Source of the DNA: Tubiluchus corallicola
Taxonomy: Eukaryota > Animalia > Priapulida
Assembly (NCBI GenBank): GCA_030141605.1
Contig: JAQGDQ010000370.1
Span: 1 to 64,000 of the forward strand
Length of the DNA stretch: 64,000 nt
Reading direction: 5' to 3'
Below are positions 1,506 through 37,500 of this stretch, piece after piece. The position numbers and the translations under genes were made by a program. The first letter of the stretch is position 1; every line of letters starts with the position of its first letter. The notes under the pieces are model-generated. The model had not been told where the DNA came from, did no database searches, and saw only the letters and a program-made list of their open reading frames with translations.

Positions 1506-4500
1506 CTGGAGAAAAAACAGGTTTCTTGTTAAAATGCATGGTCCTCAACAAATCCCAATACTTCAGTGTTCTCTCATTCTGTAAACCCCCCTATACTTTC
1601 CCTTTTAAATGCATTCATGTATGTATGTCTTGACTTGGCTTCTTTCTGCCATGCTCTACTGATAGAGCTAGTTTACCTGGCGAGTTAGCAGTCTGTTCTT
1701 GGCTAAGAGAGGTGTTGTTGTTTTGTGTCAGTTAAACCATTTATTTGTCAAGTGCAGTAGATGATGTAACCATGTAACCGAGAGTAGTAGCCATGATGTA
1801 AGTTTATTTTGATTATTCAGTCTCACTTTATTATTAATTTCCTTGTTTCTTTTTTGGCTCAAATTAGTTTGTTATATTTTGTGATGATTTTTCTTACAGA
1901 TAAAACGTAATAAAGCTACTCAAACATGATTTTTTTGACTTTGGGCATCATGAAGTAGTAGTCTCTCACAATGAATAAAGACACTTTCTGCAAAACTAAC
2001 ATCACTCACAATGCACTCACGGCAAGAGCTAAGCTTCCATCTGCTGCAAAAAAACTCCGGTTATATATTTTTTGTTTTGTTTATTTATTTCACATCAACA
2101 CAAATACACAACCAATATTGCCATATTGCCCCCTCCTCCTCCACCGTTTTCGTTGAAGAAATGTGCATACAAATCCGAATGTGGTTAAGGTACTTATGCA
2201 TCGTGAAATTACATCCATTTCACAATTCAAACAGGAGCTCAAATCTCATTTAAGTTTTTCGTTGCATAAGAAACATTTTTCGTTTGATAAACCTCCAATA
2301 TCAGTGCATCATACGCGCATGAGAATCGGATTTTCTCAACTAAACTATGACCGTTTCTCTAAAGGCTGTAAAGATAATAACGGTCATCCAACATTGCCGA
2401 ATTGTAAGTGTGGATTTCGATTTGAGTCTGTTGAACACTTTTTGTTGCACTGCCCATTGTATCAACAAACTAGGGTTGTTGTGTTTGATAAACTAAATGA
2501 AATGCTTCTGCCCGAAAACCTTAATATAGCTGCCTTAGGAGCTAATGATCTGTTGAAGTTGTTATTATTCAGAAAAGGTGAATTTAACTATGTTGTTAAC
2601 TGTAAAATATTCATGACTTTATATTACGTACTAAACGCTTCCAGTAGTTTCTATCTGATATAAAATGCATCAGTCTTAAATAATCGTACATTAATATTTA
2701 CTAACCGTCATTTTCTACTAATGTCTAATGTAATCTTGTAGTAAAACTTGTCAGCTTGTGTAGTTATAGTCAATTCTTACTGTAAATTTATCTTGTAAAT
2801 AGTGTATAAAGTCTGTTGTGGTGAGGATCCTAAATCATGTTGTTAAAACTGTCTGAACCAATCCTTAACCAGATATTTAAACCAAATACACAATTAATAC
2901 ATTAAAAGAAACAAAAAGTTATCAATAATTCAATGAATAACAAACAGTAAGATACATAATAGGAAGCAAATTTTGGAAAAAATGATTTAAACTGTCTTTA
3001 GACGTAGGTGAACCTATGGTAAACAAAAATAGTGATATCGCTACTTCCTTTAATGCTGGTGTCTAAACAACGTTATGTACAGCATCATTACAAATATATT
3101 AACTTGACTCTCAAAATACTGTGGGGTTGAAAGACTAGGGGTTTAAACAAGAGAATTATCGCTGTTGTATGTTGCTTAGTAAACATCGTCCAAAACACTA
3201 GCGGACACAGCACACATGACAGTAGCCACAGCAATGATGCAAACCGGTAGTTACAATATTTTTCTTGAAGTAAAACAAGTTCAAACATGACCACACCATT
3301 ATTAATTATTTACCGTACCTTTACAGCAGGGGTGTGCTTATCTGACTAGCGGGGCCACATTAAACATTCCCGCAATTCCTGTGGGCCACATGCAGTTTAG
3401 TCAAGGAGCCAAGTACAGTAGGACCTAATAACGATTTTTCTGCATCTGATCTGTCACATCATTACTACTGCATACTACACTCAAAAAATTATTTTAGAAA
3501 TTATTAAAATTTATATTAAAAACCATATATTTCGTCATGTCCGACAGTGACATTAAGTGACTTTCATTACGTTGACAAACCTCTTCGCGGGCCGCACAAG
3601 ATCTCTCGGCGGGCCGCAGTTTGCACACCCCTGGTTTACATAATTTATAAACTTAATACACATTAAACATAAATGGCATATCTCTTTAAACTTAAAATAT
3701 ATAACCAGGTTCGAAAAGTATTAATATAATAGATAAAATGGTCTTATTATTAAATTTATTAGTCATTTTCGGTCGATAATCATATTAAGAATATACAGTT
3801 TTTGTTATTCATTTAGTTTAACACCAGTATTTAATTTTGCAATCAAAATTTAATTTTGATCAGTTTTCTTATTCAAATCTTTATTTTGTTCTAACAATAT
3901 TTGCTCGCCATGCTGAAATAAGTAGACTCTCTATTTAGGGATGGCAGACTAGATGACCTTTTGGTCTTTCACCATCCCGCCCTTCTTTAATCTTTGTAAA
4001 TCATTGTTATATACTATCTATGATCGTTATTTTGAAGGCAAAAAATAAATTATTATTATTATTATTACAACGACCAGAACAACAACACCAAATGGTCATC
4101 GCTTAAAGCTGATCATGACAATGTAATTATGCTAAATGTGCGACTTAAAGAATAATTTTATTACGCAATGAGAAAAAAATTGTCAGAATCAGAACCAGGA
4201 CTTACAAACACGGGACTCATTCTACATAAAAATCACATCATCAAACTATCAATCAATCAATCAATCAATCAATCAATCAATCAATCAATCAATTTATTTC
4301 ACTCCAGCAATACATATACAATACATCAACATACAATATTACTGAAACAAAAAGAAACAGTATAGGTAAAAAAAACGTTGATGAAGTCAAATTAACTAAA
4401 TAAAAGAGTTGCTGTATGACACCTTGAAGGCTTGGCTTGTTAAGGTGGCACAAATGAGTGAATGAAAGAATGGTTAGGGTTAGTAGACATGATGGAATGG

Positions 4501-34500: not shown

Positions 34501-37500
34501 TAATTAGGCTCAAACTATGCCGTACCTATCAAAACGACAACCGCTGCTAGGCACTGGAAAAAGCAGCACACATGGTGGACGCGACAACCAAGAGAGAGAT
34601 AGTGAAGTTTATTCACTTCTTTTATAGCAAATGGTGCACATGCGCAAAGCCAACTCTTAGTAAGCAATAAAGTATTTAACAATACACCAGAACAAAAGAA
34701 ATTTATTGGAGTTCAAAAGTCAAAATCCAAAGATTAAGATGACTAGGTCATCTTCTAAGATTACCAAATGAATCGCCTTAAAGAAATCCTTAAACCCTTG
34801 CAAAAAACTTCCTTGTAAACCTAAAACAACTGATAGCTAAGATAAATAAAGATGTTCAACAACTTCAACCAAATCTATCTTTAGGAGTAGAAGAACTTAC
34901 ACTGTTAGCTGCAGATATAAGTGGGTGGAATATTCTGATAAATGTTGATACCTCAATGCTTACAACAGGTGGAATGAGATTTTGAAGAAGAAGAAATAAA
35001 GATAAAACAGATGAGTATCACATAAAAAGGAATGGAGATGATGCGTGGAGGAAATATAAATACTTAGGCAGTCTTCTAGCAATAGATGAAGATATATCAA
35101 GAAGAAAAATCTTAGTACTAGCTGCATATTCCAAATTAACAAAAAAATTTGAAAGTAAGATGATCAGTTTAGATACAAAATTAAGAATCTTTGCTGCACT
35201 TGTTGAAATAATATTTTTTACACTGTATTTTTATGTAGGTGATTGTTGCGTGTTAACATAACATTAACTATGTCGAAACGTTGCAGATGTTTGTGTCTGT
35301 ATAACAGCCATGTTTTTTCCTAAGTGAGTTCTGGCTGCTATTTTTATTTTAAGAATTCGTTTTCCCCGTCGCAAATCAAAATTCACAAACATTGAAGTTC
35401 TTACCTTGTGATGCTGCGTATAAAAACTCGTCAGTTCAATGCTGTTAATCACGTCTTCGACTCGCTCTTTCGTTGAATTATCACCCACGGGAATCGCGTG
35501 AATGTTGTACTGCGCGCACAGGTAGCGCATGACCTCGTCCGGCGCCGTAAACAAGTCCTTCAGGTAACTATGGAAACCCCACTTTCTGCAAATCAAAATA
35601 AAAATTCAGCCATGCACGTCATTAAATCATAACTTCGATATTTATAATTTTTATATTTCATATTTATTAATTAATAACTCTCAATGTTTCTGGAATTTTC
35701 GTAAAAGCCTCAAAGATTATAACTGCTTTACGCTTGGAACTACGAAGTTTCTAACTGGCAAATGAAAAATCCACTAGACAACAATATGATGTCACCAGTT
35801 TGACAGACACTTTAAGGCAGGGGTGTGCAAACTGCGGCCCGCGGGCCACTTGCGGCCCGTCGAGAGATCTTGTGCGGCCCGCAAAGAGGTTTGTCAACGT
35901 AATGAAAATGCGGCCCACGCGATCCAGCTGAAGTCTGCACCAATATCCCTTTTTTAGGGATAGTTTTTTCCTCTATATCGAATGGCATTAACCCTTACAA
36001 GACCGTTGTCACTCAATGTCACTGTCGGACATGACGAAATATATGGTTTTTAATATAAATATTAATAACTTCTAAAATAGTTTCTTGAGCGTAGTAGTAA
36101 TGATGTGCGCAAACTGGATGCAAAAAATCGTTATTAGGTCCTACTGTATTTGGCTCCTCGACCAAACTGCATGTGGCCCGCAGGAATTGCGGGAAAGTTT
36201 AATGTGGCCTGGCTAGCCAGATAATTTGCACACCCCTGCTTTAAGGTAATATAAAATTAATGTACATAGCACACTACATCATTTAAAATCTCACCACTCT
36301 GAACAATAAAATACATTTAAAATTCATAAGATACATAAAATTTAAAAGACATTAAAAATTAAAAATAATTTACCGTAAAAAGTACAACTTAAACAAATGT
36401 GTTTTAAGATGTTGTTTTAAAACGATCTAATGAATTTGTAGAACGTGTAGCAACAGGTAAGTTATTCCAGAGGCCTGCAGCACAGACAGAAAAAGCTTTT
36501 TACCATAGAATAATGTATTAGGAAGTGGCTGATGTAAATTAATTTGTTCATTATCAATAGAACGAAGTGTTTGACTTATGTTACGGCATATTAAAAGATC
36601 AGTAAGGTACGCAGGTGCCAAATCATGTAGTATTTTGTAGGCGATGCAAAGAATTTTAAATTGAATTTGGAACATCATCGGCAACCAATGTAGCTCTCTT
36701 AAAATGGATATAATATGATAATATTTTCTAGTTTTTGTAATGAGACAGGCAGCAGAGTTCTCAATTAGTTGAAAAATAACTAATCGACTAGACCAGGGGT
36801 GTGCAAGTTATCTGACTAGCGGGGCCACATTAAACTTTCCCGCAATTCCTGCGGGCCACAGGCAGTTTGATCAAGGAGCCAAGTACAGTAGGACCTAATA
36901 ACGATTTTTTTTTGCATCTGACCTGCGTACATCATTACTACTACACTCAAGAAACTATTTTAGAACTTATTAAAATTTATATTACAAACCATATATTTTT
37001 ACTTTCAGGACAGATAGTGGTAATTTCATTACAATGCATATTAGTAATGTGTATCACACAGTCTGTGTAGTACAGTGACATTAAGCTACAACCATCTTGT
37101 AAGGGTTAATGGCATCCGATCTAGTAGAAAAAACTACCCGCACTATCTTTGGGATCGTGGCACGGACTTCAGCTGGATACACTCAATTAATCGCCCGGGC
37201 CGCACTTCCATTAGGTTGATAAATCTCTTCGCGGGCCGCACAAATTCTCTTGACAGGCCGTAAGTGGCCCGAGGGCCGCAATTTGCACACCCCTGGACTA
37301 GACAACAAGGTGGTGTCACTAGATTGAAAGACACTTTACGTTACTAAACGTATTTCTGATTTTCCCTTATTGTTTATGCACTGCTTAACCGAATTTACCT
37401 TTATGAACCTATTTTCAAACATTTTGCTTGGTTTTATTAAAAAATATAGAAACTGTAGCATATAGTGACTTCTAGGACAACCTGCATACATACACTAAAC

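Follow-up and report, generated by a model that had tools for sequence, protein, structure and literature searches.

The SMC5 gene and its long intron

The window analysed here, comprising the first 64,000 nucleotides of contig JAQGDQ010000370.1 from Tubiluchus corallicola, is spanned by the minus-strand gene for SMC5, and one intron of this DNA-repair gene, intron 13, contains a locus of gustatory receptor-like (GRL) exons on the opposite strand. Searches by tblastn with the SMC5 proteins of a starfish, a horseshoe crab and Priapulus yielded collinear minus-strand matches from 63.1 kb down to 1.3 kb, corresponding to 14 exons that total 1,971 nt, encode 657 amino acids without a stop and are separated by introns with GT-AG boundaries throughout. 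The predicted protein can be aligned collinearly over its 657 residues with full-length SMC5, from the Walker A head through the coiled coil to the hinge, and its identity was 36-50% to lophotrochozoan, chelicerate, deuterostome and priapulid sequences and 27-32% to those of insects and fungi. The gene exits the left end of the window 3′ of exon 14, the 3′ third that encodes the C-terminal head (signature motif and Walker B) being located outside. Position and frame served to place exon 8 and the exon 10 donor. The features of the host gene, with the evidence for each, are the following:

63035..63102, minus strand: SMC5 exon 1, from the ATG (tblastn, alignment, profile)
62161..62270, minus strand: SMC5 exon 2, Walker A (tblastn, alignment, profile)
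60372..60456, minus strand: SMC5 exon 3 (alignment, profile)
57634..57733, minus strand: SMC5 exon 4 (alignment, profile)
53773..53898, minus strand: SMC5 exon 5 (alignment, profile)
50869..51081, minus strand: SMC5 exon 6 (alignment, profile)
48193..48354, minus strand: SMC5 exon 7 (alignment, profile)
45919..45990, minus strand: SMC5 exon 8 (position and frame; no profile match)
43872..44012, minus strand: SMC5 exon 9 (alignment, profile)
42456..42573, minus strand: SMC5 exon 10 (profile; donor picked by frame)
40643..40797, minus strand: SMC5 exon 11 (alignment, profile)
38889..39097, minus strand: SMC5 exon 12 (alignment, profile)
35405..35585, minus strand: SMC5 exon 13, with a phase-0 donor (tblastn, alignment)
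1506..35404, minus strand: SMC5 intron 13, GT-AG, phase 0, host of the GRL locus (33,899 bp)
1275..1505, minus strand: SMC5 exon 14 (tblastn, alignment, contig of run X1)

Exon 13 ends at position 35405 before a phase-0 donor (GTAAGA), and exon 14, from 1505 to 1275, is bounded by the acceptor CTCCAG and another phase-0 donor, GTAAGC. The junction between both exons was free of gaps and overlaps in 47 of the 51 aligned SMC5 records, the other four being without residues on one or both sides. Intron 13 measures 33,899 bp, that is, 9.1 times the next-largest SMC5 intron and 15.7 times the mean of the other twelve (764-3,735 bp, mean 2,163). A profile of SMC5 built without the window matched 13 of the 14 exons at E < 1 and recovered every part of the protein once, with exon 8 unmatched; it produced no match inside intron 13 and found no SMC5 segment twice in the window. 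These results agree with the first-pass annotation, which had described exons 13 and 14 as phase-compatible and contiguous, the intron between them as roughly ten times larger than the others, and a receptor-like cluster with five first exons, which lie on the plus strand within 1506..35404, as nested antisense inside it; the second SMC5 copy that it had named as a refutation was not found in the window. In a separate scan of metagenomes with SMC5 exon 13, one of 126 candidates was confirmed (L001), and it was rejected as a chance match in an unrelated long open reading frame (ORF) with no SMC5 profile match.

First exons and tails of the receptor locus

The five GRL first exons found on the plus strand of intron 13 (cassettes A to E) are free of stops and end at a common aligned codon that is immediately followed by a phase-0 GT donor. 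They encode the helices up to the sixth transmembrane helix (TM6), and their match to the Pfam family 7tm_7 stops at profile position 298 of 370, indicating that the cassette exons are without TM7. When aligned to D, the other first exons presented 29-84% identity. A short exon 2 of 51 codons (phase 0-0) and a likewise short exon 3, which carries the TM7 motif and the stop codon, encode the C-terminus; both occur twice, once after D and once after E, and thus always downstream of D. The features of the locus are the following:

5359..6471, plus strand: cassette A, 371 codons, intact, phase-0 donor, without 3′ exons of its own (Pfam, profile)
9242..10426, plus strand: cassette B, 395 codons from the first ATG (translation may in fact begin at a later one), intact, phase-0 donor, without 3′ exons of its own (Pfam, profile)
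13621..14733, plus strand: cassette C, 371 codons, intact, phase-0 donor, without 3′ exons of its own (Pfam, ESM Atlas, profile)
17613..18722, plus strand: cassette D, 370 codons, intact, phase-0 donor (alignment, structure model)
20751..20903, plus strand: exon 2a, 51 codons (phase 0-0) for the loop that follows TM6 and for TM7a, predicted to be common to A-D (tblastn, profile)
21076..21173, plus strand: broken 3′ fragment of exon 3, with no acceptor, no TY motif and an in-frame stop (self-comparison, tblastn)
23619..23723, plus strand: exon 3a, TM7b with the TYhhhhhQF motif and the stop, predicted to be common to A-D (motif, self-comparison, profile)
28641..29768, plus strand: first exon E, tandem copy of D with 84% amino acid identity (self-comparison, alignment)
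30239..30391, plus strand: exon 2b, copy of 2a with 5 nt differences (tblastn, self-comparison)
31839..31921, plus strand: tandem duplication of 85 bp that repeats the acceptor of exon 3b upstream and out of frame with 3b, a possible decoy acceptor (self-comparison)
31990..32094, plus strand: exon 3b, copy of 3a with 4 nt differences (motif, self-comparison)
8886..8934, plus strand: non-coding element upstream of B, common to sites upstream of D (16512-16563) and E (~27833-27993)

The receptor identity of the first exons was assessed by family profiles and by fold. Cassettes A (27.8 bits) and B (34.7) passed the 7tm_7 cut-off of 26.6 bits, C (21.3) fell below it, and D and E were unmatched; for C, the top matches in the ESM Atlas were to 7tm_7, with a score of 0.96. 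A structure model of exon D alone, which is without TM7, was obtained from a 15-sequence alignment with a pLDDT of 74 and a pTM of 0.74, an earlier model from five sequences (pLDDT 51.5) not having been used for the fold search. The 18 best matches listed for this model were all structures of insect gustatory receptors (GRs), odorant receptors (ORs) or Orco (best E 2.2e-4, TM-score 0.59), the closest being Gr64a, Gr43a and MhOR5 (TM-score 0.5-0.6). The GR-like identity supposed on first reading was therefore upheld, by Pfam at or near its cut-off for three of the five exons and by fold.

Concerning relatives of the cassettes, the closest one in a 50%-cluster library was P0006, a protein of 375 amino acids (E 8e-21) that was sister to all five (97.4/98) and is itself a tail-less first-exon call ending at the cassette donor position. 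The five cassettes formed their own clade (94.9/96) among eight distant relatives, in a tree that contained no insect spliced locus, and the best relative was only 22% identical. Six of the eight, recorded as prokaryote-style gene calls, end by running into a valine codon (GTN) at the cassette donor position, which suggests that animal GRLs are often recorded as truncated proteins. A word-based search with exon D revealed no relative among 2,784 word-sharing candidates, none of 58 pattern matches was confirmed in a metagenome scan with the cassette alignment, and the cassette profile detected no additional broken first exon in the window.

With regard to the tails, the TM7 motif (T/S)Yhhhhh(Q/K/E)(F/L/M) described in PMC7746228 is exact in exons 3a and 3b. 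Two phase-0 introns interrupt the 3′ part, the first at the very position where six of the eight relatives break off. The duplicated acceptor at 31839-31921, if used, would truncate receptor E before the TM7 motif. Searches by tblastn with exon 2, and by motif and self-comparison for exon 3, recovered only two full copies of each plus two broken pieces of exon 3, and no copy in the gaps A-B, B-C and C-D. The best exon-2 scores in these gaps were 26 (66 ORFs), 31 (78) and 37 (62), respectively, and five control intervals gave 24-28; the power of the search was indicated by a mussel GR with only 15% identity to D in exon 1, the tail of which still scored 75 against exon 2. Moreover, a profile made only from mussel and springtail C-termini placed 2b, 2a, 3a and 3b, in that order, ahead of all others among 2,778 ORFs (E 1.6e-5, 3.7e-5, 0.044 and 0.059), and its best ORF in the gaps between A and D was a minus-strand repeat match (E 1.1), with nothing over background. 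Pfam returned no 7tm_7 for 86 of the 99 gap ORFs of at least 30 amino acids (microsatellite ORFs and a few others were omitted), a result that was not counted because three positive controls were missed too.

Duplication, selection and the proposed gene model

Substitutions were estimated as Nei-Gojobori counts of non-synonymous (dN) and synonymous (dS) change. Between A and C (dN 0.34, dS 1.21) and between B and D (dN 0.44, dS 1.43), dN was lower than dS, which shows, as judged from these counts, purifying selection on the cassettes. The younger pair D/E presented a dN of 0.095 and a dS of 0.166 (dN/dS ~0.57), with roughly equal dN and dS in mid-exon, against 0.011 and 0.076 near TM5-6. The corresponding values were 0.009 and 0.115 for exons 2a/2b and 0.013 and 0.147 for 3a/3b, estimates that rest on few differences (5 and 4 nt); by these counts the tails are far more constrained than the receptor bodies, with a dN/dS of ~0.08 for the pore.

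The cassette tree was ((A,C),(B,(D,E))), with both groups supported at 100/100, and this topology, together with the order A-B-C-D and the similar dS of A/C and B/D, suggests a single block duplication. A two-cassette block, composed of an A/C type and a B/D type, would have been duplicated without a tail to generate A-B-C-D, and afterwards D with its tail and flanks (~16.0-24.3 kb versus 27.4-33.1 kb) would have been duplicated to give rise to E. The duplicating unit is mostly the first exon, not the whole gene. The receptor locus accounts for 26,736 of the 33,899 bp of intron 13 (79%), with 6,165 bp of coding sequence, and 11% of the intron matches repeats present elsewhere in the window. 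The first-pass annotation was right in attributing the size of the intron largely to receptor duplication. Its picture of a birth-and-death family of five genes was not supported in that form: mostly first exons were duplicated, the five first exons have only two sets of 3′ exons between them, and all five are intact, with no dead cassette seen. For the element shared upstream of B, D and E, the site at B scored 52 against that of D and 85 against that of E, whereas 30 shuffles gave maxima of 42 and 36, respectively; it is a candidate promoter element or else an ancient repeat.

On this evidence, we consider it likely that the locus antisense in SMC5 intron 13 consists of two genes, one in which the cassettes A to D are spliced singly onto shared exons 2a and 3a, and a second one formed by E, 2b and 3b. 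The anatomy is of the type known from Drosophila Gr39a, with tandem long first exons carrying phase-compatible donors and one shared C-terminal block located downstream of them, none being detected in between. In a gene of this type, transcription would start before one cassette, probably from a promoter of its own, the donor of that cassette would be joined to the first tail acceptor, that of exon 2a, and the other cassettes would be removed with the intron. Work on solved ORs (bioRxiv 10.1101/2023.08.30.555482) locates the ligand pocket in the N-terminal region and assigns TM7a/7b to the anchor and the pore; according to that division, the first exon would supply the receptor body up to TM6, which holds the pocket in solved GRs and ORs, and the shared exons TM7a/7b, and the isoforms would differ in sensing and share assembly and conduction. 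The predicted products are five subunits of 455-480 amino acids, which would form tetrameric ligand-gated cation channels that differ in their sensing parts and have the pore in common. The antisense placement likely matters as well, because tail-less donors on the same strand would risk mis-splicing of SMC5 and those on the opposite strand would be invisible to the host; in line with this, PMC3814207 reports selection against mis-splicing in same-strand nestings. The proposal of splicing from anatomy alone also follows what PMC6080948 presents as accepted practice in insect annotation.

Several observations weigh against this two-gene model. In run X2, which is presumed to be RNA, only repeats and no exon were covered, within a single 7-kb stretch, and the splicing of A to exon 2a would have to bridge 14.3 kb and skip three other donors. 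A decayed private tail could escape detection, as Pfam missed the true exons 2 and 3; with exon 2, the tail of a springtail GR reached a score of just 37, no better than the top ORF of the gaps, which marks the limit of sensitivity; and the tail searches covered the 64-kb window, so that tails could be located elsewhere. A short stop-containing motif is shared directly after the donors of A and B (6472-6495 and 10427-10450), two cassettes with a protein similarity of only ~30%, where both reach a stop at exactly 7 codons and carry a branch-point-like 7-mer, and it may be a splicing element or a product of chance. Finally, the depth of the contigs from run X1 was 39 over SMC5 exon 14 and ~10 over cassette A, an unexplained difference, depth not being equivalent to copy number.

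It is judged unlikely that A, B and C once belonged to separate genes and were orphaned by the loss of their tails, so as to be dying members of a birth-and-death cluster in which only D and E are functional. This alternative gains from the broken exon-3 pieces, which imply that tail parts have been copied and lost in this locus, from the fact that a dN/dS below 1 reflects past rather than current selection, and from the want of RNA support for A-C. However, three exons of 1.1 kb have remained without stops or frameshifts and with intact donors despite an old divergence (dS 1.2-1.4 or saturated), and tail remnants were detected in none of the three gaps; this alternative would need at least two separate clean losses.

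It is very improbable that the long intron is an artefact, with exon 14 derived from another copy of SMC5 or the region misassembled. The contig depth, which is higher over exon 14 than over cassette A, and the repeat content of the interval would be compatible with such an error. Nevertheless, exons 13 and 14 meet at adjacent residues with matching phases, and two exons joined by chance would not continue the protein from one codon to the next; the profile search of the window revealed no duplicated SMC5 segment and none within the interval; and the divergence between D and E (dS 0.17, 84% amino acid identity) is, in our judgement, too high for the usual haplotype duplication. In addition, contigs of run X1, which is possibly the source sample, locally confirm the start of cassette A and cover exon 14 with both flanks at two differences, the intron not being spanned. 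Least credible of all is that A, B and C are single-exon genes reading through their donors into six-helix proteins without TM7 (decoys or non-channel proteins), since, although A and B share their motif and their stop 7 codons past the donor and 16 of the 17 first intron bases are identical in A and C, the tail-bearing D and E show a similar read-through (8 and 73 residues), C continues for 63 low-complexity residues, no TM7 motif occurs before the stop in the read-through of A, B or D, TM7a/7b forms the anchor and pore in the structural work cited above, and the relatives that run into valine at the donor position do so as a conserved donor predicts.

Surroundings of the locus and comparison with known systems

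Repeats are frequent in and around the locus. Four elements of ~470 bp with terminal inverted repeats of ~31 bp (10530-11002, 21190-21654, 22154-22612 and 26832-27291) are all located inside the GRL locus; three copies are 96-99% identical over their length, the one at 21190 has a different middle, and the element looks like a recently active miniature DNA transposon. A 34-bp tandem repeat of ~10 copies (28246-28579) lies just upstream of the ATG of E, as an expansion of a unit that occurs singly upstream of D. A 74-bp minisatellite carried by a dispersed repeat has 7 copies inside intron 13 (30875-31399), 12 outside it (37892-38783) and one unit at 2716-2787, and two other minisatellites, 48664-50549 (38 bp x 50) and 51078-52825 (25 bp x 69), account for the bulk of SMC5 introns 6 and 5 and border directly on exon 6. 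The ORF pieces at 2157-2663, 54166-54762, 56605-57018, 58372-59037 and 60496-61101 resemble what we take to be the C-terminal ends of non-LTR retrotransposon proteins; Pfam gave only weak, uninformative matches to DUF6451 for two of the six retroelement-like ORFs tested.

The host was placed by SMC5 itself, which shares 50% identity with that of Priapulus caudatus on shared columns and at most 44% with every other record. In a tree of 33 rows, the window was sister to Priapulus with an SH-aLRT of 99.3 and a bootstrap of 100 (FastTree 0.993). From the 51 rows, 18 had been removed as redundant, short or very divergent, among other reasons, including the nematomorph Gordionus, and two Priapulus records had been merged. 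The tree was without kinorhynch, loriciferan, onychophoran, tardigrade and nematode rows, and the safe placement is therefore a priapulid or a relative, and a non-arthropod. The SMC5 of P. caudatus is recorded as two partial proteins, P0017 and P0001 (347 and 538 amino acids), on contigs of equal length, so that its annotation was probably split.

Antisense nesting itself is common, and the nesting alone would be ordinary. In PMC3814207 and PMC5174743, 9.5% of D. melanogaster genes are reported in nested structures, and the locus resembles the opposite-strand nested genes of Drosophila and mammals described there in that a fast-evolving, duplicated guest occupies a long intron of a conserved host, on the favoured opposite strand. 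The suggestion of the first-pass annotation that separate expression domains of host and guest might limit transcriptional collision agrees with what PMC5174743 reports for nested genes of Drosophila. Unlike in ordinary nested genes, a multi-cassette locus takes up 79% of the intron and brings it to nine times the length of the next-longest one. Within the literature covered, which was incomplete and did not extend to the main GRL surveys, no report described the cassette layout in a non-arthropod, the GRLs of a priapulid or a GR locus within SMC5, and the available portions of PMC4244043 and PMC11682238 held nothing further on the layout.

For Drosophila, cockroach and firebrat, PMC2204066, PMC6175461, PMC6080948 and PMC10925181 describe long first exons in tandem that are spliced to a common set of short exons. 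As in those insect loci (Drosophila Gr39a, Gr28b and Gr23a; Blattella Gr60a-m; Thermobia Or15/24/27/31), the cassettes of the GRL locus are tandem long first exons with their own donors and shared short C-terminal exons, and, as the first three papers report, the duplicated long exons are under weaker constraint. It is possible, and offered here only tentatively, that a GR gene with swappable sensors and a shared pore is a general repertoire device of protostomes rather than an insect invention, and that one such array grew inside an essential DNA-repair gene of a marine worm of the priapulid line. If so, fast-evolving sensor exons on a near-frozen pore would imply that non-arthropod GRLs act as diversified chemical sensors, and such arrays would escape annotation because gene callers see only tail-less first exons. 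The locus is also a warning that GRL counts from automatic annotation are too low. With sensor exons that diverge (dN/dS ~0.57) and a pore that is conserved (~0.08), it provides a concrete set of candidate tuning receptors from Scalidophora, a branch near the base of the moulting animals, and the constant position in SMC5 intron 13 could serve as a landmark when the array is compared between related genomes. In relation to animal GRL/7TMIC proteins, the locus has two 3′ introns, not three, and a cassette array. It differs from the insect spliced loci in its non-arthropod host, in having two shared exons instead of three or four, in lying as a whole antisense in one SMC5 intron, and in cassettes that form a separate lineage with no apparent orthology to any insect locus, and it bears on whether the spliced-cassette layout had a single or a repeated origin.

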